The notes under the pieces were generated by a model that saw only the letters and a list, made by a program, of their open reading frames with translations, was not told the DNA's origin and ran no database searches. A stretch of DNA of 64,000 bases from Candidatus Dojkabacteria bacterium HGW-Dojkabacteria-1. GTDB lineage: Bacteria > Patescibacteriota > Dojkabacteria > SC72. The DNA is taken from contig PHAO01000001.1 in assembly GCA_002840365.1 (NCBI GenBank), positions 239,242-303,241 on the forward strand, read 5' to 3'. The position numbers and the translations under genes were made by a program. This document shows, piece after piece, positions 10,782 through 51,903 of this stretch; the first letter of the stretch is position 1; every line of letters begins with the position of its first letter.

Positions 10782-12845
10782 ATGAGAATTAAAACTGCCA
10801 TATTACAATTCTGTCTTCTTGTATCTCTTTTTCTTTTTGTTCCCAATATATATGCTCAATTACAAGAAGATGTTGTTGTTACAGCAAATATTAATGTAGA
10901 TTTTTACTCCACAGTAAATGTTAATCCTTCAACGGTAGAAATATTTCAACCTAGTATCGTAGAGATAAGGGTACTTAATCCTAATGGTCAGGGTATACCT
11001 GGAAGACAGATAGTGATTGTTGCTCCTGGATTAAATATTACCCAACCTATTACACTTACTGATGCAACTGGTAGGACAACAGGTTCTGTCTCTAGTGGTA
11101 CTGCAGGAACATATACTGTCTGTGCAAAGGATACTACCTTTGGCTATGACATTGATATACAAAACTGTAAAACCTTGTATGTAATTCCTGTACCAGTTCC
11201 AAGTATGCTTCCTGAGCCACAGTATACAAAGGGTTTAACTAATACTGTTTTATGGCAAAGTTTAGGTACTGCATATAGGTACAATGTTCAGGTTAGTGAA
11301 TTTTCAAACTTTAGCGTAATTAAGCAGGAGTCAGGAGTTATTAATGCTACATCTTTTGAGTTTACAAATCTTGAAAATGGAAAGATGTACTTTTACAGAG
11401 TAAGGGCTCAAAATCTCTTTGGTGGTATAGGTGGGTGGTCTAATTCTGTATATAGTGTTCAAGATGCACAAAATCCATCTATCTCCATATTAGATATTGG
11501 TGGTGTTGGAGAAAATACTACTAACAATTGGAGTAGTAGTTTTACAATTACAATGCTTTTCAGGGTTACAGATAACCTGCAATTAGCTAGTACTCAATTC
11601 ATATGTCTTAATTCCCAAGGTAATTCATATCCTTGTACAAATAGCTCTAATCAAGAAGGAGATATATTTACTGTAAATATTAGGTTAGGTGATTTAGAGA
11701 GAATCTCAGGTACATTCCTAAGGCAGAGATATGAGTTCTGTGTAGAGGCCGTAGATGGTGCTACAAATGTTCAAAGGTTGTGTAATATATATATTGATAT
11801 TCCTCCGGGTGAAGAGGTTGTAGAGCCTCCTGTAGTCCCTCCAATTATCAAACGAGTAGAGAAGGTAATAGAGGATATTAATGTAATATTAGATGATACT
11901 GTTGGTAAGTTAGATCCTAAGGATTTGGATAGGGTAACTACAACTACTTCTGTTGTTACTGCTACTTCCGCAATCGCTATTGCTGCTGGTGGTTTAGGTA
12001 GTCTTCCATATTTCCTTCTTCAGCTATTCCTTAATCTTCTTTCTTTACTTGGATTTAGAAAGGGTGCTAAGCCTGTTGGTTTTGTATATGACTCTGTTAC
12101 TAAAGAGCCAATTTCTCAAGCTATTGTTAGAATCTTTAATGAAGAGAGTCGTATTGTATGGTCAGATGTAACTGATGGTAAAGGATATTTTACGGCTAGA
12201 TTAAAGGATGGTAAGTACAAGATTGTAGTAAGAGCGCCAAGATATATATATCCTTCTACTGTAGTATTTGGTAAAGAAGATTATCCTGTTACCAATGTCT
12301 ATCATGGTGAAGAGTTTGTTGTATCAAGTGAGACAGAAATCAATTTTGCTATTCCTCTTGATCCAATGGAAACATCAAAGTTAAGACTTAGATTAGAAGG
12401 TTTCTGGACTAGAGTTAGGTTCATAGTGAACATTTTACATGTTCTTCTTTTCCTTGCTGGTATTACTTTAGCTTTCTATACATATTACAATTCACCGTCT
12501 GTTCTTTCATTGGTAGTACTTCTTCTGTTTGTTCCAACTTTCTTCTTCATATTAAGAAATATCTTCTTACACAGGGACAGGTATGGATTTGTTTTAGACA
12601 AAGCAAAGAATCGTTTGGAGGGAGTAGTCATTGGTCTAAGAGAGTCTGAGTTTGACAAGATTGTTGCAAAGAGAGTAACAGATGTAAGAGGTAGGTATAG
12701 GTTCCTTGCTGATGAGGGTAGATATTACATTGAGATTTTAGATACTGGTTACAAGGTAGAGAGTATTAAGGGTGGTAATGAGGTATATGTTAAGAAGGAG
12801 ATGTTGGTTACAAGGGATATTGTTCTTACAAGGTTATCTAAGTAG
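10782..12845 (+). CDS. secreted surface protein: signal peptide, Fn3-like domain, C-terminal TM + carboxypeptidase-regulatory-like beta-sandwich + TM segments
   Basis: N-terminal signal peptide ending IYAQ; YFYRVRAQNLFGGIGGWS Fn3 signature; C-terminal GFRKGAKPVGFVYDSVTKEPISQAIVRI ... EDYPVTNVYHGEEF module paralogous to the C-terminus of the 2203-aa protein. Confidence 0.7.
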   Translation: MRIKTAILQFCLLVSLFLFVPNIYAQLQEDVVVTANINVDFYSTVNVNPSTVEIFQPSIVEIRVLNPNGQGIPGRQIVIVAPGLNITQPITLTDATGRTTGSVSSGTAGTYTVCAKDTTFGYDIDIQNCKTLYVIPVPVPSMLPEPQYTKGLTNTVLWQSLGTAYRYNVQVSEFSNFSVIKQESGVINATSFEFTNLENGKMYFYRVRAQNLFGGIGGWSNSVYSVQDAQNPSISILDIGGVGENTTNNWSSSFTITMLFRVTDNLQLASTQFICLNSQGNSYPCTNSSNQEGDIFTVNIRLGDLERISGTFLRQRYEFCVEAVDGATNVQRLCNIYIDIPPGEEVVEPPVVPPIIKRVEKVIEDINVILDDTVGKLDPKDLDRVTTTTSVVTATSAIAIAAGGLGSLPYFLLQLFLNLLSLLGFRKGAKPVGFVYDSVTKEPISQAIVRIFNEESRIVWSDVTDGKGYFTARLKDGKYKIVVRAPRYIYPSTVVFGKEDYPVTNVYHGEEFVVSSETEINFAIPLDPMETSKLRLRLEGFWTRVRFIVNILHVLLFLAGITLAFYTYYNSPSVLSLVVLLLFVPTFFFILRNIFLHRDRYGFVLDKAKNRLEGVVIGLRESEFDKIVAKRVTDVRGRYRFLADEGRYYIEILDTGYKVESIKGGNEVYVKKEMLVTRDIVLTRLSK

Positions 12846-18602: not shown

Positions 18603-19625
18603 TTGTATATTTTTAATATGGAAAATACAGATTACAAAGTACAAGTTTTTACAGGGATTAGGCCCTCTGGTGGTTTAACTATTGCTAATGCAATTGGTGC
18701 TGTTAATCCCATTGTAAAGATACAAGAGGAAGAAGAGGTTGGTAATACAATGGTCTTTGTTGCAGATTTGCATGCCTTAACTGATGCTGAACCAAAAGAA
18801 ACTCAAAGTAACATTGTTGATGTCGTAAAGGATTACATCTCTTTGGGTTTGGATGTAAACAGAAACAGAATCTTTGTGCAGTCTTTTCTTACTCAAGAGA
18901 TAGCTGAATTGAACTTGTATCTTTCAAGACTTGTCACTATTGCAGAATTAATGAGAGTACCTACATTAAAAGAAAAGATTAAGAAGGGACAAAACGAGAG
19001 TAATGCTAGTGCATTACTTGCAATGTACCCTATTATGATGGCTTCAGATATTCTTTTACAAAAATCTGAATATGTTCCTGTTGGTGAGGATCAGGTTGCC
19101 CATATTGAAATTACTAGAGTATTGGCTCAGAAGTTTAACAAAAAATATGGAAATGTATTCCCTCTTCCTAAGGTATTGTCTTTGGGTAAGCCTGTAAGGA
19201 TTAAGTCTTTGACTGGTAATGGAAAGATGAGTAAAACAGATCCTAGTGGAGCAATTCTACTAGATGATCCGATTGAGATATCTTTAAACAAGGTAAAGAG
19301 AGCTCAAAGTGCTTTTGCCAAAGAGAAGTCAGAGAGTTTAGATTCTTTGGTATTGATAGGGGAGTTTGTTGGAAACGAAAAAGAGAGAGAAGAAATACTA
19401 TCCATTATGAAAAGACACTATGATGGTGAGAATGTAATGGGTGAGCTAAAGGGTGTAATTTCTACTGGCTTAGAAAGATTTTTAAAGGAGTTTCAAGAGA
19501 AGAAAGCATCTTTGAAAGAGGAGGATATTCTCAAGAAGGTAAAAATAGATGGTGATATAGCAAGAGAGAATGCTAAAGAGACATTAAGAGATGTTAGGAA
19601 AGCAATGGGATTGGAATATTTTTAA
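18603..19625 (+). CDS. trpS: class I aminoacyl-tRNA synthetase, most likely tryptophanyl-tRNA synthetase
   Basis: KMSKT (KMSKS) motif, degenerate HIGH region (SGGLTIANAIG), 340-aa size typical of TrpRS; TyrRS not excluded. Confidence 0.6.
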   Translation: MYIFNMENTDYKVQVFTGIRPSGGLTIANAIGAVNPIVKIQEEEEVGNTMVFVADLHALTDAEPKETQSNIVDVVKDYISLGLDVNRNRIFVQSFLTQEIAELNLYLSRLVTIAELMRVPTLKEKIKKGQNESNASALLAMYPIMMASDILLQKSEYVPVGEDQVAHIEITRVLAQKFNKKYGNVFPLPKVLSLGKPVRIKSLTGNGKMSKTDPSGAILLDDPIEISLNKVKRAQSAFAKEKSESLDSLVLIGEFVGNEKEREEILSIMKRHYDGENVMGELKGVISTGLERFLKEFQEKKASLKEEDILKKVKIDGDIARENAKETLRDVRKAMGLEYF

Positions 19626-21640
19626 TTATCTCTTATTCTGACAATATATCTTTGTCCATGACCAAACACTTCATCCATATCACCTTCTTTTACAACGAAG
19701 ATTTTTATTCTACCATCATTGTGTCTGTTTGAATCTGCTACAAGCAGTACTGTTTCTCCTCTTTCATCTTTGATTTTATCCAGTATTAATCCGATATGTC
19801 CTGTAGGTTTTCCAGTACCTGCCATTGGGGCACCATCTACTCTTACAAAAAGGTCCCCGGGGTTATAATCATCAATACTAAGTTCTCCTCCTGCAATGGC
19901 TTGGGCTCCATAGTTTGTTGCCATAGACCTTTTCTCTTTATAGGTGTAATTTCTGAGTCCTTCGGGTATTAATTCTCTAGCACTATCTGCTGGAGCACTT
20001 CCAACGTATGGTATTGGTATTTCTGGATACAGCCAGGAGGCCATCATCACAAAGCCTACACATTGTAATGGTTGGTTTTTTACTTGTGCAGTTGTTGATA
20101 ACATAAGTATTCTATCAACCCTTTCTTTGTTTTCTTCTGTAACATACTTTTTATACCAATCAGAGTTTCTTAGGTATTCATTTAATCTTTGTGGATTCTC
20201 ATAGGTATATGTATTTACAGACTCTTGTAATTCCAATACGTTTTTCAAGGTTGAGTTTTGCTCTATTCTTTCTGAAAAAAGTCGTAAATCTTCTACGTTG
20301 TATATTAAATCAGCAGAGTTTTGCATTTGTATATCAATGGGATGATTTAATACATTTATGTCCATTTGATTGTCATTTAGTCTCTCTTGGTGTTGTGAAC
20401 TTCTGAAATATCTGTAGTTTTCAAGGTCTATTGCTAATTTTTCTGTTTGATCTTTTGGAGGAAAGTCTTCAAATGAAAGCGAAACTACAAGAAAGACATC
20501 TGAAAGACCTCCTACACCATCTTTCTCGGTTGCACTATATGGTAAATCAGAGGGAGTTGTAAAAGTTTTAATATGAAGATATTTGTCTTCACCTTGAACC
20601 CATCGAAAGTCAAATGTTTCTCTATCATTGTAATCTACTGTTGCATCTACAAGATATTCAGAAGGACTAAAAGGTCCTTGTGCATACCTTACTGGATGAG
20701 CCCATTGTTCCAAAATTTTGTATTGATTGGTATTTTGTAGATGAACGAGTGCAGAGGTTCCAGTTGCCATTGCGCAGACCCCCCCTCCTTTTACCTTGGA
20801 TTTGGAACTTGTTAGTCCGTATTCGTACTCATTTTTTTTGTTTAAATCTTTTAAACCAATCATATTTAAATATGATTGTTCTGTATTTTTTCTTAGAGGC
20901 CCATTTACATCTTGGTACTCAGACATATTTCTGAGAGCAATTAAGGTATTTGTAACTTTATTAGGATATATGAAATCCTCTGTTACTACATATGATACTA
21001 TTTTACTATTTGTTTCCTTCTCTTTGGTAAACTCTATCTCCGTCCCATTTTCGTCTGTGGCACCAAGGAGCACAGCTGAGACAAAGTTTGCACCAAATGT
21101 ATTCGCGATTAGACCTAATTTAATTTTTTCTCCATTGGGTCCGGTAATATTTCTTATTTCCGCTATTTCAAAACTGTGTCCGTAAGGAACTATTATTTCT
21201 TTAACCTCTCTTCTTTCATCTACAAAATTATCTTTTCTAAGAGGAATCATGTACATCGAAGTTTCATTTAATATTTCTATACCATATCCTGGTTCTTTTG
21301 CTTCAATTTTTTCTATTTTATATTCACTCCAGTCAGTAATATTTAAAATCTCATGATTAAAGGGCTTACTTTCTTGTGATATTGTTTGTTCAGTAGGTGT
21401 TTCAACAAGGGTTTGTATTGAAGGTGTTAGCGTAGGTGTCGCAAAGCTAGGCGCTTTTGCAGTATTTGTATATTCGAACCCCATGGGGGTAGCAAGGGTT
21501 TCAGTAACTGGTGGTTCTGTAACAGCTTCTTCTGCTTTTGCTTGTGCGGATTGGCCTATATTTGTACATCCTGTAACAGCAGAGGCGAGAAGAGATGTTA
21601 CAGTAAGAAGTTCTACTGCTTTGTTGTGTTTTCCTTCCAT
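19622..21640 (-). CDS. lipoprotein with C-terminal CHAP-domain (Cys/His amidase-peptidase)
   Basis: Lipobox AVTGC after a signal peptide; C-terminal QCVGFV ... PGDLFV ... GHIGLILD matches the CHAP Cys/His pattern; 1-nt gap from the giant surface-protein gene. Confidence 0.6.
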   Translation of the reverse strand: MEGKHNKAVELLTVTSLLASAVTGCTNIGQSAQAKAEEAVTEPPVTETLATPMGFEYTNTAKAPSFATPTLTPSIQTLVETPTEQTISQESKPFNHEILNITDWSEYKIEKIEAKEPGYGIEILNETSMYMIPLRKDNFVDERREVKEIIVPYGHSFEIAEIRNITGPNGEKIKLGLIANTFGANFVSAVLLGATDENGTEIEFTKEKETNSKIVSYVVTEDFIYPNKVTNTLIALRNMSEYQDVNGPLRKNTEQSYLNMIGLKDLNKKNEYEYGLTSSKSKVKGGGVCAMATGTSALVHLQNTNQYKILEQWAHPVRYAQGPFSPSEYLVDATVDYNDRETFDFRWVQGEDKYLHIKTFTTPSDLPYSATEKDGVGGLSDVFLVVSLSFEDFPPKDQTEKLAIDLENYRYFRSSQHQERLNDNQMDINVLNHPIDIQMQNSADLIYNVEDLRLFSERIEQNSTLKNVLELQESVNTYTYENPQRLNEYLRNSDWYKKYVTEENKERVDRILMLSTTAQVKNQPLQCVGFVMMASWLYPEIPIPYVGSAPADSARELIPEGLRNYTYKEKRSMATNYGAQAIAGGELSIDDYNPGDLFVRVDGAPMAGTGKPTGHIGLILDKIKDERGETVLLVADSNRHNDGRIKIFVVKEGDMDEVFGHGQRYIVRIRDN

Positions 21641-21641
21641 T

Positions 21642-24600
21642 TTATGTTCTTGCTATCTTAAGATTTCTGTTAATCAATTTTCTTCCCTTAGTTGATATTT
21701 CTGTTTTACCTTCTACAATCTTTATACCACTATCTGTTGTTTCTATAATATATTCTCCTTTCTCTGAGATATCAAATGAGTATCTCCCTTCCGAGTCTGT
21801 AACTCTTTTTGCTACTACCTTATCAAAATCTTTGTCCTTAAGTATGAGTATGATATTTACAGCGGGTGTACCATTTTCATAAAGAACTTTTCCTGTTTTT
21901 CTTCTCATACCAATAATGCTTTTTACAAGAACATATGTGGTTGGAATGTAAAGTAGTAATATCGCTAGGTTTTGTGTAATTGGATTCTTTGAGTATACAT
22001 ATGAAGCTATTGTAATACCTCCAAGGAAGAGAATTAGGTTTATGATTGGTAGTATAGATGAAGCAAAACTTCTGAAGAGAGTAAATGCTTTCTTTTGTAT
22101 TGCTTTCTGATCTGGGTCTATGGGGATTACAACATTTATTTCATTTTCCTTAAGCAGTATCTTTTCTCCGTGGTATACATTGGAAAGTGGGTAATCTTCC
22201 TTTCCAAGTATTAGTTTAGATGGGAAGTCATAGTTTCTTCCTTTCACTTCAAGTATATATTCTCCGGTAGGGATGTCTGTTCTAAAGAGTCCATACCCAT
22301 CTGTTACTGCAGTATCAACAAGTTTTTTCTCAAGATCATATATTCTAACAATTGCTTGCTGTATTGGTGCTCTTGTAATTGAATCATATACATATCCAGC
22401 AGGGTATCTCTTTCTTCTAAACCCTATTGAGCTTAGGATGTTGATAAAGATTTGTGACATAGCATATCCTACCTGTCCAAGGTTTCCTAAGATTGATGCT
22501 AATCCTACTGAAACAGTAACTGCAGTAGCAGTAGCTGATACCGTAGTGAGTCTTTCTTTTTCTATATTTCCCAGTGGTGAGCTATCAAGTAAATTGAATG
22601 TTGTAGTTACTACTCCCTCTACTGCATTAGAGATGTTGTCCCTTATTCTTCCTGTTGTTGGTATTACTGCTGGTTTCTCATACAGTTCTCCCTGTGCACC
22701 TGTTCCTCTTAGTCCATCTGCTATCCAATATGTTACTCCTGATATACTTGCTTGAGATACTGTTACATCATTTCCTTCGACTTTTAGCTTTTGAGGGAAG
22801 TTTCCTGTATACAGGACTGCTTTGTTACAATCAACTTTTATTTCTTCTAAGCTTCTTGCTTCTGGACATATTCTAAATGCGTTGTCTGAATCCTTTTTAA
22901 CTACATACATAGTATACTTATCTGTTAATCCATGTGTAGTATTAAGCTTCACAACAGTCTTACCTTGTTGTGGAGAAGTTTGAATAATTGCATTACTCCA
23001 GTCTCTGTTGTTCTCAAATGATATTGGTAAGTCAGCTACAACAAAATCTTCAGTTAAGATTCTTACTGTTTGAACACCTGTTTGTGCTCCTTCAACATTA
23101 CTTACATCAATATTTCTGTTGTCTACAAGTATAGTACTTATGTTTTCAGGCTTGTTAAGAATAATGGAGAATGTTTTACCTGTATTACTTTCTACAAATG
23201 CAGTTTCTACATTTGCATTGTTAATAGCCTTAACTCTAAATGCATATTGGGCTCCAGGTTCAAGAGATCTAATTGTTAAACCGGTATTTCCTCCCCATGA
23301 TGAATGCGTTCCCCAAACGACATTGTCTACAAGTTGCATGGTTGTATAGTCAAGATATTTTCCAGTGTTACTTTCCTGTATTGCAAATCTTGTAGTAGTG
23401 GGGTTTCCATTTCTGTCGAATCTTATCCTACCTGTACTTCCTCCTACGGTTTCAAAGATTAGGTCTCTTGGAAGGTTGGCCCATGTGGTAGCAGAAATTG
23501 TTTCAGAGAATCCTGAGAACAAATTATCTGAGTTAACGCTTCTTACTCTAAAGGTATATGTTGTATTTGGTGGAAGATTTGCTAATGTGAAGTTACTGTT
23601 TACTCTTGTATCATCATGTATTACTGTTGCAGTTGTAAATCTGTTTTCGTTATCAATATTTCCATTTGTTACTGCTTCAACCAATTGATATCTTGTATTT
23701 GCAGGATTAAGATTCTTGTCTACAGTTAATTCTATTGAACTTCCACTAATTACTCTTGCTCTTACACTTGGTACTCTTGAGAAGGTATGTGCACTTATTG
23801 ATTGGGAACAATCTGTTTCAAGATTTTGAGAGTTTCTTGCTCTTACACAGAATGTATATCTTGTATTGGCTTCTAGGTTTTGAATATTTACTCCACTGTT
23901 ACTACCGAAATCTTGTAAGGATCTCCATACAGGTTGTGTATCGAATACTCTTGTTGATGGATTCACATTCTGATTACGATTTACTTCCATTAATCTGTAT
24001 GTAGTAGAGGTGTTGTTACTGTTAGCATTAATCACTACAGACATTGTAGTTGTATCAATTGCTGTTACAGAGGTAATAGCTGGTTGGTAAGAAAGAGTAA
24101 TGATACTTACTTCATTACCATATTCTGTCTCTATGGAGTCATCATTAAGGGCTTTTACTCTGAAGGTATATTCTGTATTTGGTAATAGTCCATATACGGT
24201 TATTCCATTATTTGAGCCCAACTGTATATATGTTGCATAGTAGGGTGAGTCCTGAAGTAATTGAGAGTTAGTATTAAGATATTTCCCAGAGATTTTTTCT
24301 TGTAGAAGATATCTAGTAGTAGAAGGATTATTATTTGTATTTACAGTTAAGTCAACACTGTCAGCAGTATATTTTCCTGCTGTAATATTTTGTAATGATG
24401 GTACATTTGCAAACGTTATTGCAGAAACCACATTACTAAATGTACTCTCTGCAATACTGTTGTATATTTTCATTTTCCTTGAGTAAGAGGTATTAGGTTG
24501 CAGGTTGTTTTCTGTACAGCTAAGTATTTCTGTCCCAAGACAGGTTTTAATTAATACTCCATTTTCGTTATACAACTTAATACCTAATATACTGTCTGTA

Positions 24601-27600
24601 TATTCAGATATTCTCCATGTTATTTGACTACTTGAATCAACAACTGGAGCTATTGCTGTGATTGGTGAGAGTAGGGTAGTAGCAGAGGATGTTCCAGAGA
24701 AGTCCGTTTCAACATTTTCTCCATTTCTTGCTTTAACCTTGAAAGTGTATGTTGTTCCTGAATTTAACCCTATTACACTAAATGGTGTTAAATCTGCATT
24801 GTTCTCTCCCCAGAATGGAGTTGCTTGTAATTCTCCTGTTGTTAAATTTAGATATTTGCCTGTAAATGTTTCTTGTATTAGAAGCTCAGTATATTCTGGA
24901 TTTGCTCCATTCAGTACTCTTAGAGATATTGTTGAATTACTTGTAGCATATACATCTGTAAGACTTGGTGTTGTTGCGAGTGTATATGTAGAAATTTGGG
25001 TTGAATAAAGGGTTTCTTGTCCATCGAAGTTTCTTGCTTTTACTCTGAATGTGTACTGTGTATTTGGTTGTAATCCTATTGCTACATCTGATGTACTTTT
25101 AATCCACTCCCTTATTCCCGAATCACATCCTGTTTCTATACATTCAAAGAAGAGTCCAGAATCTCCTGTTGAGAGATTGTTTACTCCAGTTGCATTAAGA
25201 GATACAGAGGTAGTAGAGAGTGGGCCTGCAGAGAGAGTCGGTACACTTGCTTGAGTATATATGGTTATTGTATCTGAATATTCTGTTTCAACATTATCTC
25301 CATTTCTAGCTTTTACCTTAAATGTATATGGTGTGTTGTTTGAGAGTCCTGTTACGGTAGGATTATTGTCTAGTGTCCATACATTAATATTTGTATCGCA
25401 ACTACCCTCGCAATCAAAGTACAGTTCTCCACCATTTACTGGTTGTGTTGCTGTGAGAGATATTGAAGTATCTGTCTTAACTCCAGAATATTGTATTGTT
25501 GGAACAGATACTAATGTATATGCACTTGCGCTGTTTGAGGGAGAGCTTTCTGCTTCATTGTTAAATACGATTGCGTATCTTGTATATTGTGTATTTTCAG
25601 AGAGATTCTCTTCATCACAATATGTTAGATTTTGACCTACACAAGTTACTTTAAGAATGTCATTTTCATCATACAGCATTATTCCTTCCTCTCCACTTGC
25701 ATTATCAACGAATTCCCAACGCATTGATGTGGTCGTAAGTGGTGTTCCTTTAAACTCTGTTACAGTGTTTGGTACATCAAGCATTTTAAAAGTAGCTGTT
25801 GAGGACCAAGGGCTTTCTGTACCAGGTGTATCTATGAATCTTATCCTCCAAAAGTATGTTACTCCGTTTAGTGAAAGAGCTACTCCTTCATATTGAATTG
25901 GTATTGATCTTAAGCCATTCTCAATCCGGTCACTTCCTAAAAGCGCTATATATCCACTATCCCACATAGTTGTACCTGTAAAGGAAGAATTTGTATTTAC
26001 TTGGACTTGATAATGAGTTCCAAGATCTGAAGGATCAGAATCAGTAAAGACTGCACTAAACTGAGGCTGTAATGTTGTTACTTGGGTTGGATTTGTTTGA
26101 TTGTTTGTTTCAAGTGAAGATGGTGCATTAGGTGTAGAATTCATCTTGAAGGTATTTGTTGACGACCAACCACTAACAGATCCATTTACATCCCATACTC
26201 TCATTCTCCAGTAATATGTAGTACCATCAAGTGTCAAAGTATTTCCTTGGTATGTTATATTTGGAGTTCTTGTATTGTTTGCAGTTGTGGCCATAGAGGT
26301 CTCACCACTATCCCACATAGTTGTACCTGTAAAGGAAGAATTTGTATTTACTTGTATCTGATACTTGTTACCACTGTCACCATCAGGGTCTGTAAACAAA
26401 GCGCTGAAATTAGGTTGTGTGTTTGTAATAGAGGTTGGATTTACTAATCCTTCCGTTTGTAGTTGTGTTGGGGCGCTTGCAGGAGTATTCATCCTGAAAG
26501 ATGCTGCAGAGGACCATGCCCCTTCTGCACCTTTGTTATCCCAGTATTTTATTCTCCAGTAATATGTAACTCCATTCAAAGTGAGATTAGATTGTCCATA
26601 TGTAATATTTGGTCCTCTTGTTCCTCTTGTTACTGCAGAGATATTTATTTTTCCACTATCCCACATCGTAGTACCATTAAACGCTGATGTTGTATTTACT
26701 TGTAATTGATATGACACCCCTGTATCTCCAGTATCTGGATCATTGAAAATTGCACTGAAAATAGGGTTCATTGTTGTTACTCTCGTAGGATTTGTAGCAT
26801 CATTTGTTGTAAGGCTTGTAGGTGCTGTTGGAGGTGCGTTGTAAGTCTCCTCCGCGCTTTGGGAGACATTTACAGATGCTTTTCTTTGAGCAAAAATGGT
26901 TGTTATGTATGGTGGGAGTGCTTGTACTGCGGATGTTGTCGCTGTACAGCTATGAGTATGTGTATCATGCACGAAGGCTGAACCTGAAACCCTATATATT
27001 CCCTGAGAACTTGCACTCTGTCCTCCCGTTGTAACACTTATACTGTGGGTGTGTGTTGCTCCTGCGTATGAAGAACCTGCTGTTACAGCTCCAAGTGGAA
27101 ATTTTCCATCAAGAGCGGAAAATCTTGTCCAGCCGTATGGTGGAAGAGCTGTTGTCATTTCAATAATGCCGTTACTGGCATATGTTAAGGTAGAAGCCTG
27201 TCCATATGTTACTGAATAATATGGAATGTTATTATTTCCTGCTGTAGTAGTGGTACTGTTCGTCGTATGGAAGTGGTTTGCCGCAGCACTTGTACTACTG
27301 TGGGCGTCCTTACTATCCCTAGAATTGTTTGTTCCAGTATTGTATCCACCCGTGGCACTATGTGTATGTGTTGCAGATCCCCCACTTGCTACAAACCCAT
27401 TTCCACCCTTTGGATATCTTCCTGTGAGAGTTGAATAGTAAGTGAAATTAGCAGCTAGAGTTGTTGAGTTTGTATTAAACATTGCAATGGTATTTGCTGG
27501 ATGTGAGAGAGAAGTGTTTGAACAGTAGTATAGTTGGGTGAATGGGGGGTCAATCGTTGTATCTGTTACATTTACGGTTGCTCCTGTATGAGTATGATTA

Positions 27601-28253
27601 GCTAGCTGTGCAGTAGTGTTGGGAGAATCATCGTCAGCACCATTATGGAAAGTTCCAATTGCTGTTCCAGTTGTACAACTTGCAGTTCCATGATTATGGG
27701 TACCATTGGAACTTGTGCCATAGGAGGAGGAACCATATGGAAATTTCCCATCATATACACTTTCTCTAGTCCATCCACTTGGGCATGATGCAGAAGAAAG
27801 GACAAGGAATTTCCCACTCCAGGATGCTTGTCCACTTGTTGCGGAAGGGTTTGAATAGTAGAGATAAATTGTCTTACCTGCTGCAGGAAGACTTGGAATT
27901 CTGACCCAAACTTGTGTAGTTGTTGTATTACATCCTCCCTCTATCCAGTATGCAAGTAATGTCGTGTCATTACTATCAACAAATCGTAAGTCATTACAAT
28001 TAGATTGTAATTTTCCACTTGATATTAATGTTGATGTATTTACCACTACTAAAACATCTTCGTTTGTAAGGTCGGAACCTGTACCACTAACTGTTAATGT
28101 TCTTCTATTTGCCCAACTACTGTTATACCAGCCCCTTACCTCTTGTACATTCGTACTCATTACAAATATAGCCGTGATTAAACCAGTAAGACTAAGAAGT
28201 GCAATTACAAATATCAATATTTTCCTAAGTTTCTTTTTCTTGGCAGTTTTCAC
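21642..28253 (-). CDS. giant (2203 aa) cell-surface protein: N-terminal DUF2341/LamG-like domain, His/Thr-rich HTH-repeat region, about ten tandem Fn3 domains, C-terminal carboxypeptidase-regulatory-like domain and TM anchors
   Basis: N-terminal TM/signal; LRFVDSNDTTLLAYWIEGG ... VWVRIPSLPAAGKTIYLYYSN (DUF2341-like); repeated ATHTHS/HDTHTHS motifs; repeated TYYWRI(K/R) ... WSS and YTF(K/R)VKARN ... ETEYS Fn3 units with about 100-aa period; C-terminal GFRRKRYPAGYVYDSITRAPIQQAIVRI module. Confidence 0.85.
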   Translation of the reverse strand: MKTAKKKKLRKILIFVIALLSLTGLITAIFVMSTNVQEVRGWYNSSWANRRTLTVSGTGSDLTNEDVLVVVNTSTLISSGKLQSNCNDLRFVDSNDTTLLAYWIEGGCNTTTTQVWVRIPSLPAAGKTIYLYYSNPSATSGQASWSGKFLVLSSASCPSGWTRESVYDGKFPYGSSSYGTSSNGTHNHGTASCTTGTAIGTFHNGADDDSPNTTAQLANHTHTGATVNVTDTTIDPPFTQLYYCSNTSLSHPANTIAMFNTNSTTLAANFTYYSTLTGRYPKGGNGFVASGGSATHTHSATGGYNTGTNNSRDSKDAHSSTSAAANHFHTTNSTTTTAGNNNIPYYSVTYGQASTLTYASNGIIEMTTALPPYGWTRFSALDGKFPLGAVTAGSSYAGATHTHSISVTTGGQSASSQGIYRVSGSAFVHDTHTHSCTATTSAVQALPPYITTIFAQRKASVNVSQSAEETYNAPPTAPTSLTTNDATNPTRVTTMNPIFSAIFNDPDTGDTGVSYQLQVNTTSAFNGTTMWDSGKINISAVTRGTRGPNITYGQSNLTLNGVTYYWRIKYWDNKGAEGAWSSAASFRMNTPASAPTQLQTEGLVNPTSITNTQPNFSALFTDPDGDSGNKYQIQVNTNSSFTGTTMWDSGETSMATTANNTRTPNITYQGNTLTLDGTTYYWRMRVWDVNGSVSGWSSTNTFKMNSTPNAPSSLETNNQTNPTQVTTLQPQFSAVFTDSDPSDLGTHYQVQVNTNSSFTGTTMWDSGYIALLGSDRIENGLRSIPIQYEGVALSLNGVTYFWRIRFIDTPGTESPWSSTATFKMLDVPNTVTEFKGTPLTTTSMRWEFVDNASGEEGIMLYDENDILKVTCVGQNLTYCDEENLSENTQYTRYAIVFNNEAESSPSNSASAYTLVSVPTIQYSGVKTDTSISLTATQPVNGGELYFDCEGSCDTNINVWTLDNNPTVTGLSNNTPYTFKVKARNGDNVETEYSDTITIYTQASVPTLSAGPLSTTSVSLNATGVNNLSTGDSGLFFECIETGCDSGIREWIKSTSDVAIGLQPNTQYTFRVKARNFDGQETLYSTQISTYTLATTPSLTDVYATSNSTISLRVLNGANPEYTELLIQETFTGKYLNLTTGELQATPFWGENNADLTPFSVIGLNSGTTYTFKVKARNGENVETDFSGTSSATTLLSPITAIAPVVDSSSQITWRISEYTDSILGIKLYNENGVLIKTCLGTEILSCTENNLQPNTSYSRKMKIYNSIAESTFSNVVSAITFANVPSLQNITAGKYTADSVDLTVNTNNNPSTTRYLLQEKISGKYLNTNSQLLQDSPYYATYIQLGSNNGITVYGLLPNTEYTFRVKALNDDSIETEYGNEVSIITLSYQPAITSVTAIDTTTMSVVINANSNNTSTTYRLMEVNRNQNVNPSTRVFDTQPVWRSLQDFGSNSGVNIQNLEANTRYTFCVRARNSQNLETDCSQSISAHTFSRVPSVRARVISGSSIELTVDKNLNPANTRYQLVEAVTNGNIDNENRFTTATVIHDDTRVNSNFTLANLPPNTTYTFRVRSVNSDNLFSGFSETISATTWANLPRDLIFETVGGSTGRIRFDRNGNPTTTRFAIQESNTGKYLDYTTMQLVDNVVWGTHSSWGGNTGLTIRSLEPGAQYAFRVKAINNANVETAFVESNTGKTFSIILNKPENISTILVDNRNIDVSNVEGAQTGVQTVRILTEDFVVADLPISFENNRDWSNAIIQTSPQQGKTVVKLNTTHGLTDKYTMYVVKKDSDNAFRICPEARSLEEIKVDCNKAVLYTGNFPQKLKVEGNDVTVSQASISGVTYWIADGLRGTGAQGELYEKPAVIPTTGRIRDNISNAVEGVVTTTFNLLDSSPLGNIEKERLTTVSATATAVTVSVGLASILGNLGQVGYAMSQIFINILSSIGFRRKRYPAGYVYDSITRAPIQQAIVRIYDLEKKLVDTAVTDGYGLFRTDIPTGEYILEVKGRNYDFPSKLILGKEDYPLSNVYHGEKILLKENEINVVIPIDPDQKAIQKKAFTLFRSFASSILPIINLILFLGGITIASYVYSKNPITQNLAILLLYIPTTYVLVKSIIGMRRKTGKVLYENGTPAVNIILILKDKDFDKVVAKRVTDSEGRYSFDISEKGEYIIETTDSGIKIVEGKTEISTKGRKLINRNLKIART

Positions 28254-39347: not shown

Positions 39348-41921
39348 GTGCATGCCCAGTATTCTGGATTAGGAAGTGGAACTATAGAATTACCATACGT
39401 AATTACAACATGTTCCCAATTACAGGAGATAGGGGATGATCCCACAGCTCACTATGTCTTAGGTAATGACATATATTGTGAAGAGAGTGAGTTATGGAAT
39501 GATGGTAATGGTTTTATACCTATTGGTGGAGGGCAGGATTTCTGGGGAACTTTAGATGGAAATAGTTTCACCATATATGATTTGTATATTAACAGACCCG
39601 AAGAGAATAATATTGGATTATTTCATACGATTGAGGGTGGAGAAGTGAAGAATTTAACACTTGAGAGAGCATATGTTAGAGGCAACGGCAGAGTTGGGGC
39701 TTTAGCAGGACAATCATCAGATGGAGATTATTTTAATATTTCAGTTATCGATTCAATTGTTATATCAGAAGATATCTATTTTGGAAGTAATGTCGGAGGA
39801 ATTGTAGGATTTAGTGAAGATAGTATTACTATTGAAAATTGTAGTTTTAATGGGACAGTAACAGGATACAATTATGTAGGAGGTCTTCTAGGAAATGGCT
39901 ATGGAGGAGGATCAGAAATATATATTATTGATTCGTATAATGAGGGAGTTATTTCTGGTAAAAGTGGTGTAGGTGGATTAGTAGGAGTTTCAAGTTATAT
40001 TCACGAGATATCTAATTCCTACAACACTGGTTCTGTTGTCGGTTTCTACAGAGTAGGTGGATTGGTAGGTTACTCACAGTATGATATTTCAATCACGGAT
40101 TCATACAATGAGGGTAGTATTTCTGGTTACTATCGTGTAGGAGGATTAGTAGGTGGTGTTGAGGAGAAGGTGACAATATTAAGATCGTACAATGAAGGCC
40201 CGATTTCTTCCCTTTTAGAAAATTATGATCCTGAAGAGTATGATTTACCTTCGTGGATAGATCAATATGTCTGTGTAGGTGGATTAGTAGGTGCAGCTTG
40301 GAAGAGTGATATTTCCAAGTCATATAATCTTGGTAATATGCAAGCATTGGGTGGTTCTAGGTCAGTTGGTGGTATTTTAGGTTGCGGAGGTTTAGTAGAT
40401 ATACAAGAGACTTACAATAAAGGTGATATAGAAACGGAATTAACAATTTCAAGGATGGTTTCAATAGATGGAGTTGGTGGTCTGGTAGGTATGGCAATTA
40501 ATATGAAGCTTATGAACACATATAATGCGGGGAATTTAAGTGTCAGCTATTGGAATGATTGTACAGAATATTTTACAGATGGCTATTTATATTTTTCATG
40601 TGGCTATTTCCCTTTCAGTGGCGGTTTAGTTGGTACCTCTATGGTTTCCTCTGTTAGAAATTCATATAACAGAGGTGATATTACTATTGCTGAGAGTCAG
40701 GAAGAATTAGCCGAAGGGGGAGTAGGTGGGTTATTTGGGCTTCTTCTAATGGATGAGTGGATGATAAATGATATAGTTAATAATTTTGAGAAGGATTTTG
40801 TAGAGAGAGTTACAACATATATAGCCGAATTAATTAATAATTTCGCAGTAGGATTAATAACAAACCTTTACACAGGGGATAATGTCTTTGTAGGAGGATT
40901 AGTGGGTATGTTTTTTGCAGGTAATTGTACAGATAATAACTGTGTAGATGAGTATATTAATTTTCAAAATAATTGGTGGTTTAATGGTATAACCAAAGCA
41001 ATAGGTACAGTGGTTGGAGATATCTTCAGTATTCCTCAAATGTATTCAGAAGAGCAAGAGGAAGGTAGGTTTGAAAGAGCAAGTACAATGGAAATATTTA
41101 AGACCTATTCACACAAGGTATACAATACTGATCCTGAATGGGATTTTAATACAATATGGAATTCGGTATATGATGGTAAAGGTTATCCAGTATTAGGAAT
41201 ACAAAGCTTGGTGATGCCTTCTGCACCTGTCGCTAGTGTTGTTTCTGGAACATATTCTAGTGGTTTTAATGTATCTCTTTCATCTTCAGCCAGTACAATT
41301 AGATATACAATAAATGGAATAAATCCATCATGTAGTACAGGAATAATATATACAGGTTTAATACCAATATCTTCATCCTCTGTGATTAAAGCTATTGGTT
41401 GTTCAGATGATGTTTCTTCTTCTCTTTCTGAGTTTACATACATCATATTGCCAAGTGGTCCAACACCAGATACAACACCGTCTTTAACAACTTTAATAAA
41501 GAGAAAGATATATACTCCTCCAACTGTGTTGGAGAATTTAGAATCAAGTAGTGAAGTACAAGAAGAGAAAGAGGAAACGAAGGTAGAAGAGAGTAAAGAA
41601 GTAGTATTTAGAATAAAGATTGTAGATGAGAAAGGTAATGCCTTGGTAGGTGCAAAGGTTATCTTTGAGGGTAAGGAGTATATTACTGATATGAATGGAG
41701 AAATAAGGGTTAATGGAATAGAGAGTGGTGAGTATGTATTAAAGATTACTCATGATGGTAAGGAGTATGAACAGGGGGTTGTTTTAGGGAATTCTAACCT
41801 TGTAACTGAGGTAATATTAGAAGATACAGAAAAGAAAGATTTCCCGTGGTGGGTAGTAATAGCTGTGGGTAGTGTATTACTAGTTACAGGAGTATATGCA
41901 TTTAGGAAGAAACAGATTTAG
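39348..41921 (+). CDS. surface protein with about ten tandem GLUG-like repeats (SYN-G-I-G ... VGGLVG), a CHB_HEX_C-like domain, a carboxypeptidase-regulatory-like domain and a C-terminal TM anchor
   Basis: Repeated [SY]YNxGxISGxxxVGGLVG units of roughly 25-30 aa; STIRYTINGINPSCSTGIIYTGLIPISSSSVIKAIG resembles the chitobiase/hexosaminidase C-terminal domain; C-terminal WWVVIAVGSVLLVTGVYAFRKK anchor. Confidence 0.6.
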   Translation: MHAQYSGLGSGTIELPYVITTCSQLQEIGDDPTAHYVLGNDIYCEESELWNDGNGFIPIGGGQDFWGTLDGNSFTIYDLYINRPEENNIGLFHTIEGGEVKNLTLERAYVRGNGRVGALAGQSSDGDYFNISVIDSIVISEDIYFGSNVGGIVGFSEDSITIENCSFNGTVTGYNYVGGLLGNGYGGGSEIYIIDSYNEGVISGKSGVGGLVGVSSYIHEISNSYNTGSVVGFYRVGGLVGYSQYDISITDSYNEGSISGYYRVGGLVGGVEEKVTILRSYNEGPISSLLENYDPEEYDLPSWIDQYVCVGGLVGAAWKSDISKSYNLGNMQALGGSRSVGGILGCGGLVDIQETYNKGDIETELTISRMVSIDGVGGLVGMAINMKLMNTYNAGNLSVSYWNDCTEYFTDGYLYFSCGYFPFSGGLVGTSMVSSVRNSYNRGDITIAESQEELAEGGVGGLFGLLLMDEWMINDIVNNFEKDFVERVTTYIAELINNFAVGLITNLYTGDNVFVGGLVGMFFAGNCTDNNCVDEYINFQNNWWFNGITKAIGTVVGDIFSIPQMYSEEQEEGRFERASTMEIFKTYSHKVYNTDPEWDFNTIWNSVYDGKGYPVLGIQSLVMPSAPVASVVSGTYSSGFNVSLSSSASTIRYTINGINPSCSTGIIYTGLIPISSSSVIKAIGCSDDVSSSLSEFTYIILPSGPTPDTTPSLTTLIKRKIYTPPTVLENLESSSEVQEEKEETKVEESKEVVFRIKIVDEKGNALVGAKVIFEGKEYITDMNGEIRVNGIESGEYVLKITHDGKEYEQGVVLGNSNLVTEVILEDTEKKDFPWWVVIAVGSVLLVTGVYAFRKKQI

Positions 41922-43472: not shown

Positions 43473-44054
43473 TTATTCAAAACTTTTAAAAATTTCTTTG
43501 TAAAAGGAAAATTTTGAAGAAACATTATTATTTAAAACCTCTAGAGTGTGCCCAAGCATCTGATAATTAACAGAGAGTATCGCATCCTCACTTAATAAAG
43601 GATAATCCTTCTTTAAGTTTGTCCAATCAAGAGATTCTGCATTTACATGGCTAAAACTATGAGTGATTTTTACTACCTTATTGTAGTATTCTTTTGAAAA
43701 TCCAACCTCTAACATTCTCTCCCCAAGGTTACTTTTTGTCCATCTCTTCCCGAATCCAAAATCATCTTTGGAGATATCTACGAGATATTCCTTTATTCTC
43801 GTTTCAAAATTTTTATTTAAAATCCATTTTAAATTTACGGTATTTTCTATTAAAGATCTTAGTAAGATGGCTGCTTCCTGAGTAAAATTCTTCTCACATA
43901 ATAAAAGAATTGCCCCAGTAATATGAAATGAATTATAAGAGAGGCTGTGGATTAAAATATTTTTAGGAGTTTTTTCATAATTTCTTCCGATTTCGTCGAA
44001 GACAGAGTCCGTTTTTTTAATAGTATCAACAATTACACTTCTATATTGTCTCAT
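43473..44054 (-). CDS. hypothetical protein immediately downstream of the Type IIG RM gene (overlapping stop/start)
   Basis: 193-aa ORF overlapping the RM gene end by 14 nt; no motifs. Confidence 0.45.
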   Translation of the reverse strand: MRQYRSVIVDTIKKTDSVFDEIGRNYEKTPKNILIHSLSYNSFHITGAILLLCEKNFTQEAAILLRSLIENTVNLKWILNKNFETRIKEYLVDISKDDFGFGKRWTKSNLGERMLEVGFSKEYYNKVVKITHSFSHVNAESLDWTNLKKDYPLLSEDAILSVNYQMLGHTLEVLNNNVSSKFSFYKEIFKSFE

Positions 44055-47000
44055 TTTTTATATTTTTATCAATTTCTTTCATAATCCTATCTGTTTTTTC
44101 TAGAATTACTATTATTTTTTGATAATGCTCTATGTCTATGTTAGTTAATTCTATTCCTCTTCTATCCTTTAACCATTTTTGTGCAGGCTGATAACCACCT
44201 ATATAGAAATTCCATGCAATTTCAGACACATTTCCAAAGTATTGGGTATCATTAATATAGACATTGCTGTTTTTGTATCTTATTTTTTCTACAACATCAG
44301 ATCCACTAATAGGATATGTAGTTATATATTTATTAATTTTTGATGATTCCATTAAATGTAATTCTCTTAGTTTTGTTCCTATCTTTACTAATTTCTTAAA
44401 AGATTCTTTGTCTTTAGGGTATGGTACTCTAGGAAAATCTATCTTTAAGAATTCTTTGTATTTCTCCCTATATTTAGGACTATGTAATACTGCATATATA
44501 TAATCAAAGATATCTTCTGGTGTAGTTTTACCAACTATTTCCTCTATTTTTTTCACTATTTCGGTATTCAAGTTTGGTGTTTTAGTACCATCGTCGGAAT
44601 AGAGGTAGAGTGGGAAGACATAGCTATTATCTAATGGGGAGCAAATAGCCTTATCAGTTATATCCTTTGTCACAAAGTAACAATGAAATGGGCTTCGGTC
44701 TCTTTTTGTGCTATTTAGAACGAAATTAGGCTTTTCGAGAATATGTTTCATAACTGCATGTCGAGGATTGAAAACAATGTTCTTATGATAATAAATAAAT
44801 CTGTTATCAAAAATCCTGTAAGAGTATGTCTTAATCAAATCTTCCCTATATGTTTTTCCTCCTTTTCTTGTGTCAGATAATTTCCAAAGAGCGTTGTCTT
44901 GGAGTGAATATTTTGATTTAATTTCTTCATCTGTTAGGTTAGGATCATAGAAGTCTTTAATCTTTTTCTCTAAGTTATTTTTGTTTGTATTTACAGCATA
45001 ATTGTCCTTTGCGGTAGTAATACCCATACTGTGAACTTTAAAAAATTCTTGCAATGAAATTCCTCTGTTATATTCATTTATATTTTCATAATTTTTTTCC
45101 TCAAAGAAGTAGTAAGGTTCTTGATACTTTATTTGTAGAAAAGGAGTAGATCCAATTTTGAGTGAATTTAACTCTCTTAATTTCTTTTCTCTAGTTCCCC
45201 AGATATCATATCTAAATATTTTTCCTAATTCATTAGATTTTTTCTTGTTTGTTTTTATACCAATAAATATTGCTACTCCAGGTTGAATATCAAAAACATT
45301 TTCATCTTTACTTCCATCTGGACTAATATCTTTTGTCTTTGTATTTCCATGCAAATCTATTATGTAGATTTTGTCAAAGGTTTTAAGTAAACTCCATCTC
45401 ATACCCCTAAAGGTGGGATTTTCTAAGTAACCATGGTTTGTTATGAAGGCAACAATTCCAGAATTATTCTTTTCAATGAAATTCTCTGCTAAGCCAAAAA
45501 ATTTTACATAATCATCATTTAGCCAATGTTTTTTTTCTTTTAATTTCTCATCTCCTCCTGGCTCAACTTTGTATTTATTAATTATACTCTTCGCATAAGG
45601 AGTTTCGTTTGAGGAAACTCCGCTATAAGGAGGATTTCCTATTACCACCATAACGGAAGTGTTTCTCTTAATCTTTTCTGCTTCCTTAGATTCTTCGGTA
45701 ATACTTTCTGCAAAACCAAAAGAAAATAGACCTTCTTGTTTAATCCCTTGTTCTAAGGCATTTGTTAAATAAATACCTAATCTTTTATTAAAATGTATAA
45801 AGCCAGTCTTTTTAAATGCAATACTTAGCTTAAGGTGAGCTATGGTATATGGAGCCATCATTAATTCAAAAGCATGAATACGAGGTAAAAGATCATGATG
45901 AACATATGAAGGCCACCGGCCTTTTTGACCAGAATCTAAAATATTTTTATAAATGAGGTTTATAACTGCACTAATAAAAGTCCCTGTTCCAGTGGCAGGA
46001 TCCAATACTTGAACAGTATGTTTTCCATCTGCAGATTTTGAAGTATCTGCTAAACCATTGTGAAGATTAAAATCTTTTTTGAGAATGGTATCTACTGAAG
46101 TCACGATGAAATTCACAACGGGGAGGGGTGTATAGTATGCCCCCATTCTTTTTCTTAAAGCAGGATCATACTCTTGAAGGAAGTCTTCGTAAAAATGTAT
46201 CACAGGATCTTTACCATCTTTTTTTTCAAAGTATTCCTCAAGTAGATTTTTTACATCAGCATGAGAGAAAATTTGGCAAAGTTCATCTACAATATATTCC
46301 AATCTTTTATCGAAATTAGGTCCTGCTATATGATCGAAAAAATGCATTAGTAAGGGATTGGATTGGGGTACTAAATCTCTTGCTTCCTGCCTTGTAAAAC
46401 GATCTTGAGATTCATCGTTATATCTTGCTGCGAATAAGCCGTAGACCAATGTCTGGGCATACATATCCGCAAAAGATTCTACAGTTAGATCGCTTACTAA
46501 AAGTTTCTTAATCATTTCATAGACTCTCGCAATTTCTGTTCCTTCTTTTAAGAATTCTTTAACATTATCTCTTATTCTTTGTGCTTTCCCCGCCATTATT
46601 TTTGAGAGGTGAGCTCCCGATTTAATTGGTTCTTTGTATGATTTTGAGAAATCAACGAGCGTCTTTTCTAAAAGGACATAGTTATCGGGGATAGAAGATA
46701 TTGTTTTTGTTTTTTTATCGACATTTCCAATTTTAATAGGTTCCTGATATAAAAGACCATTTCTGTAAAAGCGAAATTCTAGATAATCAGTTAATACAAG
46801 ATTTGCATATCCATAGTACCTAGCCATTTGCTCAGATTTTTCTATCTTGTCTAAAGATACTCCTAAATCCTTTGTTTCCATGTATAAGATAGGGATTTCC
46901 CCATTAAAAATAACAAAGTCTGGTTTATTTTTATCCTCGGTTTTAGCCTCTTGCCTTATTTTTCTTACTTCAATTCGATTAAAAATTTCCTGTAGTAGAT

Positions 47001-47094
47001 TCTGTATTGGTGTTCTATATGAATACTCTGTTCCTTTTTCACTTTTGTATATTTCAGATATGGAAGAAAGATATTTTTCGAAGGTTTGTTGCAT
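44041..47094 (-). CDS. Type IIG/IIL-like restriction-modification enzyme: N-terminal PD-(D/E)xK nuclease fused to a gamma-class N6-adenine DNA methyltransferase and a C-terminal target-recognition region
   Basis: KPDFVIF-x11-ETKD (PD ... ExK); motif I VLDPATGTGTF; motif IV VIGNPPYSG; 1017 aa; AT-rich relative to flanks. Confidence 0.8.
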   Translation of the reverse strand: MQQTFEKYLSSISEIYKSEKGTEYSYRTPIQNLLQEIFNRIEVRKIRQEAKTEDKNKPDFVIFNGEIPILYMETKDLGVSLDKIEKSEQMARYYGYANLVLTDYLEFRFYRNGLLYQEPIKIGNVDKKTKTISSIPDNYVLLEKTLVDFSKSYKEPIKSGAHLSKIMAGKAQRIRDNVKEFLKEGTEIARVYEMIKKLLVSDLTVESFADMYAQTLVYGLFAARYNDESQDRFTRQEARDLVPQSNPLLMHFFDHIAGPNFDKRLEYIVDELCQIFSHADVKNLLEEYFEKKDGKDPVIHFYEDFLQEYDPALRKRMGAYYTPLPVVNFIVTSVDTILKKDFNLHNGLADTSKSADGKHTVQVLDPATGTGTFISAVINLIYKNILDSGQKGRWPSYVHHDLLPRIHAFELMMAPYTIAHLKLSIAFKKTGFIHFNKRLGIYLTNALEQGIKQEGLFSFGFAESITEESKEAEKIKRNTSVMVVIGNPPYSGVSSNETPYAKSIINKYKVEPGGDEKLKEKKHWLNDDYVKFFGLAENFIEKNNSGIVAFITNHGYLENPTFRGMRWSLLKTFDKIYIIDLHGNTKTKDISPDGSKDENVFDIQPGVAIFIGIKTNKKKSNELGKIFRYDIWGTREKKLRELNSLKIGSTPFLQIKYQEPYYFFEEKNYENINEYNRGISLQEFFKVHSMGITTAKDNYAVNTNKNNLEKKIKDFYDPNLTDEEIKSKYSLQDNALWKLSDTRKGGKTYREDLIKTYSYRIFDNRFIYYHKNIVFNPRHAVMKHILEKPNFVLNSTKRDRSPFHCYFVTKDITDKAICSPLDNSYVFPLYLYSDDGTKTPNLNTEIVKKIEEIVGKTTPEDIFDYIYAVLHSPKYREKYKEFLKIDFPRVPYPKDKESFKKLVKIGTKLRELHLMESSKINKYITTYPISGSDVVEKIRYKNSNVYINDTQYFGNVSEIAWNFYIGGYQPAQKWLKDRRGIELTNIDIEHYQKIIVILEKTDRIMKEIDKNIKNETI

Positions 47095-51823: not shown

Positions 51824-51896
51824 GCGCTGGTGGGGAAGTTGGTATCCCGTTGGATTTTAAATCCAAAGCTCGAAGGTTCAAGTCCTTCCCAGCGCG
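51824..51896 (+). tRNA. canonical 73-nt tRNA cloverleaf with anticodon TTA (reads UAA/UAG); suppressor-type tRNA with Gln-like features (discriminator G73, UUUUAAA loop)
   Basis: Acceptor GCGCTGG/CCAGCGC, D-arm GGGA-AGTTGGTA-TCCC, anticodon stem TTGGA/TCCAA with loop TTTTAAA, variable AGCTC, T-arm GAAGG-TTCAAGT-CCTTC; all arm lengths canonical. Confidence 0.55.
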
Positions 51897-51903
51897 CCTT
51901 AAG

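Follow-up and report, generated by a model that had tools for sequence, protein, structure and literature searches.

The subject of this study is a 64,000-nucleotide stretch of the genome of Candidatus Dojkabacteria bacterium HGW-Dojkabacteria-1 (contig PHAO01000001.1, positions 239,242 to 303,241 of the forward strand), called the window below, and in it a minus-strand gene (21642..28253) for a giant protein of 2203 amino acids (aa). It was found that this protein contains a module of three tandem units of about 105 aa, each with two His-x-His (HxH) motifs, at aa 147-460 (26874..27815, minus strand). The module, named the HxH triad here, was delimited by unit alignment, a unit profile, and an AlphaFold2 (AF2) prediction. 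The triad appears to be new, as none of the libraries searched (Pfam, NCBIfam, and PHROGs) gave a match for it; giant DUF2341 proteins, of which the present protein is one, are already known. I propose, with chances that I put a little short of even, that the three units form a pseudo-trimer within a single chain, with two metal sites of six histidines each, and that the triad acts as the head by which a stalk protein anchored in the membrane binds its ligand.

Motif scanning and repeat alignment placed unit 1 at aa 147-248 (27510..27815; HNH at 186-188 and HTH at 220-222), unit 2 at aa 255-355 (27189..27491; HTH at 296-298 and HFH at 327-329), and unit 3 at aa 361-460 (26874..27173; HTH at 401-403 and HTH at 432-434), all on the minus strand. 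The giant has exactly six HxH motifs (at aa 186, 220, 296, 327, 401, and 432), and all of them lie inside aa 147-460, where 16 of the 22 histidines of the protein are found. None of 20000 shuffles of this region had six HxH motifs (0/20000; the shuffle mean was 0.76). The units share 25-26% identity with one another and follow the consensus I.mFd..P.GWt..S...FP.G..YG.TGG..THTH-(~25-30 variable)-THTH-(~12)-LPPY..vi..K. Unit 2 is the most divergent and has NF in place of the conserved GW. A preliminary description of this DNA, made from the letters alone, had correctly pointed out six histidine motifs but had wrongly assigned them to a low-complexity region. The region is indeed rich in Thr, Ser, Ala, and Gly, yet it consists of three conserved repeats with a confidently predicted fold; a low-complexity linker at aa 147-460 was thus rejected on the grounds of repeat structure, conservation, and the AF2 fold.

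The triad belongs to a large family. When 1.84 billion cluster representatives (50% identity clusters) were searched with the unit profile in HMMER, 3554 proteins passed E<=1e-3 and 482 of them E<=1e-30. Word-indexed homologue searching under-reports this family, since it returned 12 matches each time versus the 3554 of the exhaustive HMMER search. Is the number of units constant? The units were recounted in a sample of 161 proteins, which comprised the best matches of the HMMER search and the earlier homologues. Exactly three units are present in 129 of them and exactly six in 22, the six-unit proteins having two triads that are adjacent or have other domains between them. Of the ten others, most or all seem to be fragments or contain a diverged unit. 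There are also single-unit relatives, in which the unit is always the C-terminal domain of a small protein ending in ...LPPYxxVVWCKKD. They come from Aenigmarchaeota, Woesearchaeota, Elusimicrobiota, a Gammaproteobacteria metagenome-assembled genome (MAG), and others, and they form one family with the triad units (hhalign probability 99.9%). As for the triad itself, a sample of its taxonomic spread, taken from a scan of 12 loci with a narrower triad alignment, includes bacteria of the candidate phyla radiation (CPR), DPANN archaea, and other uncultured lineages.

In an alignment of 492 units, the four histidine positions are conserved at 95-98%, together with W16, G38, and P89. The His pairs are the only conserved polar residues of the unit, and no Asp, Glu, or Cys accompanies them. 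Between proteins, units at the same position share 33-35% identity versus 29-31% for units at different positions. This slight excess indicates that the triplication is old and that the three unit positions have since become distinct.

The structure of the 324-residue triad was predicted by AF2 from a 52-sequence alignment, with a mean predicted local distance difference test score (pLDDT) of 86.1 and a predicted template modelling score (pTM) of 0.82. With 11 sequences, the pLDDT was 53 and the HxH segments were left unmodelled. Since a pTM of 0.82 extends over all 324 residues, the three units are predicted to pack as one compact body and not as three beads. The secondary-structure elements recur in each unit, and the only stretches of lower confidence (50-66) are the variable ones that separate the first HxH motif of a unit from its second. 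A Foldseek structural search found nothing.

The fixed count of three, the C-terminal position of the single-unit relatives, and the near invariance of the His pairs together led me to propose the pseudo-trimer. A count fixed at three or six supports closure, because free tandem arrays such as those of Fn3 domains are not expected to keep a fixed count. The single-unit forms were counted for it as well, since they occur only at the C-termini of small proteins, as in trimerising fibres. In the proposed mechanism, the three units would close onto each other within one chain. The first HxH motif of each unit would contribute to one six-histidine site and the second HxH motif of each to another. 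Each site would be octahedral and would lie on the pseudo-threefold axis with Fe2+ or Zn2+, as an equivalent of what phage homotrimers (T4 gp37 and, as has been proposed, SU10 gp16) build from three chains, and the metal would clamp the module. The variable inter-HxH loops of low confidence, presumably exposed, might then form the ligand-binding head together with the adjacent DUF2341 domain.

The comparison with phage tail fibres comes from several searches. With the triad or a single unit as the query, Pfam gave no match at E<=10 (thus none to Collar, PF07484, or Gp10_C, PF21939), and phmmer gave no significant match among PDB sequences. NCBIfam, searched with the whole giant protein, held nothing matching the HxH unit. 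PHROGs had no significant match for the unit, and the relative P0010 gave only non-significant tail-fibre matches. A tblastn search of the triad and the unit against 50,697 phage records found nothing significant, with one match at E=0.1. The one PDB sequence matched by the unit profile, at E 0.3, is chain 7z47_I, the short tail fibre gp16 of phage SU10, and the alignment spans exactly the two His pairs of gp16, His194/196 and His230/232. These pairs were suggested to bind Fe2+ as in T4 gp37 (2XGF) and JUB59 (6OV6) (PMC9509320), and HxH-iron sites in phage fibres have been treated elsewhere (PMC11705849). The conserved HxH motifs that characterize T4 gp37-type domains are present here, with six in the giant and 95-98% histidine at the four unit positions. 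The C-terminus of SU10 gp16 matches Pfam Gp10_C at 3.6e-10. For P0171 and P0172, two single-unit relatives with a GW.lCDG-like motif, Collar was the only Pfam match (E 0.0035 and 0.025), with scores of 17.7 and 15.0 bits that lie below the threshold of 24. When the unit profile was compared by hhalign with four gp16 homologues, HxH, HxH, and LPP[YF] fell in register (probability 19.6%) with P=0.0012, a value that is post hoc and thus optimistic, since SU10 had been picked as the best PDB match.

This optimism weighs against my proposal, as do three other points. The alignment of a single unit with SU10 gp16 is not significant. The AF2 model was judged by its confidence scores, so that the histidine geometry and the pseudo-threefold axis are presumed. 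The shorter CPR relatives have an N-terminal hydrophobic segment only. If this segment is an uncleaved anchor, the head would be membrane-proximal and the giant tethered at both ends.

The phage links are each weak but mutually consistent; they support the idea that the triad works like a fibre tip, while they do not establish membership in Collar or Gp10_C. There are clear differences. The T4 gp37 tip (2XGF), SU10 gp16 (7Z47), JUB59 C24 (6OV6), and Collar are built from three chains, whereas the triad has three units fused in one. In phages, the HxH domain lies at the end of a virion fibre, whereas the triad lies within giant proteins of cells, namely of CPR bacteria and DPANN archaea. The similarity lies under every family threshold, and metal binding by the triad is presumed. 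That the triad descends from a phage-fibre-type homotrimeric, metal-clamped receptor-binding domain, which was triplicated and fused as a single-chain pseudo-trimer and became very widespread (at least 3554 clusters), is a possibility that I regard as rather doubtful.

Alternatively, the triad may be a new fold that converged on the HxH spacing, its histidines binding metal for a catalytic site or for capture and storage of metal at the surface instead of a structural clamp. I consider this unlikely. Fixed numbers of three or six units and C-terminal single-unit forms suit symmetric closure better than independent sites, and the conserved His pairs lack the Asp, Glu, or Cys typical of catalytic sites. 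Furthermore, the closest neighbours in structure and sequence, though weak, were time and again phage tail-fibre proteins rather than enzymes, and several of these proteins are cited for HxH or iron sites.

What accompanies the triad? In the giant, it directly follows a DUF2341 domain (aa 38-146, 27816..28142, minus strand), which begins at a conserved GWYNSSWxxRR motif. The Pfam DUF2341 model (PF10102) matches aa 85-142 with 58.3 bits in the whole protein and 62.5 bits in an N-terminal fragment, above the gathering cut-off of 23.4, and the DUF2341-like head named in the preliminary description was thus confirmed. By its Pfam clan, DUF2341 is Concanavalin/LamG-like and hence lectin-like. According to a self-built profile, a DUF2341 domain lies immediately upstream of 67 of 160 triads. 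In six CPR relatives of 646-1707 aa (L001-L003, L005, L007, and L008), DUF2341 is followed by the triad, and five of the six also carry one to five Ig_Rha78A_N domains. The N-terminal order in four of the six is leader, DUF2341, and triad. Because this order recurs in relatives, DUF2341 and the triad look like a conserved head cassette, to which the giant adds nine Fn3 domains and an anchor cassette. In many other triad proteins, the triad is preceded by sandwich domains other than DUF2341. The triad-bearing proteins (P0013-P0161) reach 6510 aa and include one of 5808 aa from Woesearchaeota, annotated as "DUF2341 domain-containing protein", and one of 5472 aa from a MAG that carries the label Actinobacteria. 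Four of the CPR relatives (L001 4595-7150, L002 1127-6247, L003 7521-10805, and L005 7533-10805) have a common C-terminal motif (...GIGLEGLKLD, ...GVGLEGIKIN, or ...EGLKLNGLKLD) and no C-terminal transmembrane (TM) segment. This motif may be a sorting or attachment signal.

Downstream of the triad, the giant has a stalk of 12 beta-sandwich modules. Three are Ig_Rha78A_N domains (aa 484-826, 25776..26804, minus strand), recognized by Pfam PF25788 (174.2 bits in three stretches, above the gathering threshold of 27.4 bits), by a YYWRxxxWD motif, and by alignment of the three copies. The other nine are Fn3 modules (aa 827-1694, 23172..25775, minus strand). Pfam fn3 (PF00041) gave 110.1 bits in eight stretches, above its gathering threshold of 25 bits, and a self-profile built from the giant's own repeats resolved seven long Fn3 modules with a YTFxVKAxN motif and two short ones. 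The array of about ten Fn3 domains in the preliminary description was therefore real and its count near, while its first three members belong to Ig_Rha78A_N instead.

The stalk and DUF2341 may be read in another way, as a device for nutrient capture that binds polysaccharide or debris with no specific partner cell, DUF2341 and the Rha78A-type Ig domains acting as carbohydrate-binding modules. Ig_Rha78A_N is named after a rhamnosidase domain, the weak NCBIfam match of the giant is a rhamnosidase, and the presumed lectin-like nature of DUF2341 would also fit. On the other hand, Pfam and NCBIfam detect no catalytic glycoside-hydrolase domain in the 2203 aa, and the Rha78A N-domain is a sandwich module that is itself not proven to bind carbohydrate. 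This use appears quite improbable.

A region of about 200 aa next to the membrane (aa 1695-1900, 22554..23171, minus strand) had no Pfam match at E<=0.1. It is followed by a C-terminal anchor cassette (aa 1901-2203, 21645..22553, minus strand), defined by Pfam and Kyte-Doolittle hydropathy. In order, the cassette consists of one or more hydrophobic segments (aa 1904-1945), a CarboxypepD_reg domain, a TM hairpin (aa 2057-2116, with hydrophobic segments at 2057-2088 and 2096-2116), and a second CarboxypepD_reg domain. The two domains (aa 1953-2008 and about 2120-2197), flanked by the hydrophobic segments, score 42.7 bits with PF13620, whose gathering threshold is 32.3. The domain inventory of the preliminary description was right as far as it went but overlooked this cassette. 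Basic clusters (RRKR, KK..R, and RRK) lie at the borders of both CarboxypepD_reg domains, and because of them the domains would be cytoplasmic by the positive-inside rule. The last 300-350 aa of the giant are 37% identical over 350 columns (E 5e-75) to the C-terminus of a 687-aa Big_1 protein encoded in the window (10782-12845, plus strand). The cassette also terminates a set of ~700-aa Dojkabacteria proteins. Its recurrence suggests a common, functionally constrained anchoring module in Dojkabacteria. The Big_1 protein has the same cassette, including a conserved GKEDYPxxNVYHGE motif.

The orientation of the head depends on the N-terminus. Aa 1-36 (28146..28253, minus strand) comprise a Lys-rich stretch and a hydrophobic segment of about 21 residues in the Kyte-Doolittle plot, with the same layout in relatives. 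This leader may be cleaved as a Sec signal peptide or retained as a signal anchor, and I put the chances of cleavage at slightly better than even. If the leader is cleaved, the head would be distal on a stalk estimated at ~40 nm, anchored by the C-terminal cassette, and could reach the surface of another cell. If it is uncleaved, the head would be at the membrane, and relatives without another anchor would be tethered by the N-terminus. Metal binding, the orientation of the head, and the role as a host-attachment adhesin are inferred, the last from the architecture.

An uncleaved leader would accord with a scaffold that organizes the envelope or wall, tethered at both ends, whose DUF2341 and HxH head at the membrane binds the cell's own glycans rather than a host. 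The hydrophobic stretch is long, with about 21 residues; DUF2341 follows it after no more than 8-10 polar residues in the giant and all relatives; the shorter relatives have no other anchor; and a GT28-type glycosyltransferase and a sugar epimerase are encoded by neighbouring genes. However, the Lys-rich n-region and a possible V-M-S cleavage site, seen by eye, fit a long signal peptide of the Gram-positive type. I know of no precedent for a stalk of 12 modules that doubles back like a hairpin, which also counts against such a scaffold. In addition, DUF2341 proteins of other organisms have been discussed as adhesins at a distal position (PMC11809585, PMC4858521). I consider the scaffold an improbable explanation.

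The pseudo-trimeric head on a stalk may be compared with known systems. Giant DUF2341 proteins of Patescibacteria and archaea have already been published and proposed as factors of adhesion or host interaction, and the large ones of MJ1470 type as type-IV-pilus-associated or host-interaction adhesins (PMC4858521, PMC11809585). The present protein shares with the latter a DUF2341 domain over the Pfam threshold, a very large size, and a CPR organism. The passages of the two papers on these proteins do not mention an HxH triad. In the window, 20 open reading frames (ORFs) besides the giant were scanned with Pfam (about 34 further ORFs lie outside the scan), and none of the 20 had a pilus-family or phage-structural match, in which the locus differs from those of large DUF2341 proteins and from a type IV pilus tip adhesin (PilY1, MshQ, or archaeal DUF2341). 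Nor does the N-terminus of the giant, MKTAKKKKLRKILIF..., show, by eye, a G/FTLIE-type prepilin motif or a pilin-type leader. The preliminary description had likened the N-terminus to the tips of surface filaments and to MshQ-type proteins, but none of the genes scanned connects the giant with pili.

Tandem Ig/Fn3 stalk adhesins, such as those of SasG/Aap type and giant repeat adhesins, are anchored by an LPXTG motif or are of the type I secretion system (T1SS)/RTX type. As in these, a long beta-sandwich array separates the putative binding head from the membrane anchor. The giant differs in the composition of its head and in its multi-TM anchor cassette with two CarboxypepD_reg domains (LPXTG and T1SS/RTX signals were not scanned for in the giant). 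A full-text search returned no paper linking HxH, tail fiber, and Patescibacteria, and no description of the triad was found.

Little is known of how CPR and DPANN episymbionts recognize a host, and most giant surface proteins of these organisms carry the annotation 'hypothetical'. The triad is a discrete, confidently predicted module conserved in thousands of giant proteins. A homotrimeric HxH domain of fibre-tip type fused into one chain in cellular giants would be new. If my proposal is true, the triad would be a defined candidate recognition head, usable as a probe for host ligands, and a model of the family would annotate many 'hypothetical' giants. The conversion of a homotrimer into a single chain would leave three binding faces free to diverge, giving monomeric giants an asymmetric fibre-tip-like head. 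It would also connect phage receptor-binding proteins directly, in evolution and in mechanism, with the host recognition of episymbiotic ultra-small prokaryotes. If the phage link is mere convergence, the triad would still be a large unannotated extracellular His-cluster domain.

The gene itself is a single ORF of 2203 codons with a GTG start codon. An identical protein is deposited as PKN02669.1 (UniRef A0A2N2F3A9), annotated as "hypothetical protein", from Candidatus Dojkabacteria HGW-Dojkabacteria-1, and its UniRef cluster also holds a 2191-aa start variant. Since the exact sequence is deposited on a 734-kb contig, the gene is intact in the assembly. This bears out the single 2203-aa ORF of the preliminary description, which had allowed for an interruption in the assembly, and its guess of a CPR-type organism also proved right (Dojkabacteria belong to CPR/Patescibacteria). 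The other genes in the 20-ORF scan include those for a class-I W/Y aminoacyl-tRNA synthetase, UDG, NDK, a DEAD-box helicase, SecA, enolase, and TsaD besides the glycosyltransferase and the epimerase mentioned above, and are housekeeping or unrelated.

A 672-aa gene (19622-21640, minus strand) begins 1 nucleotide past the stop codon of the giant, and because of this gap the two are probably co-transcribed. Its product begins like a lipoprotein (...AVTGC) and matches VanW weakly, below the threshold, and its C-terminus resembles, by eye, a cell-wall hydrolase. The loci of the relatives have no counterpart of this downstream gene, the Fn3 array, or the anchor cassette. A synteny common to the giant and its relatives was considered and rejected, as the gene beside the relatives that looked like the helicase codes for another protein, of 666-673 aa and with 24-28% identity.

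Elsewhere in the window, an 857-aa protein (39348-41921, plus strand) has GLUG motifs, a region like the N-terminus of M26 IgA1 proteases, and CHB_HEX_C/Fn3_assoc domains, and is probably another surface protein. A tRNA gene (51824-51898, plus strand; Rfam 68.8 bits) has a clean cloverleaf with a 7-nucleotide anticodon loop, UUUUAAA, giving the anticodon UUA. Such an anticodon would decode UAA stop codons. Even so, TAA ends more genes in the window than any other stop (33 of the 54 ORFs that have at least 120 aa and were taken as genes, followed by TAG with 19 and TGA with two). The tRNA may be a suppressor. TGA stops are nearly unused, though the ORFs of the window are dense and unbroken under table 11. 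Finally, a 1017-aa Type ISP restriction-modification enzyme is encoded at 44041-47094 on the minus strand, with Type_ISP_C (2e-83), N6_Mtase, and Eco57I matches.

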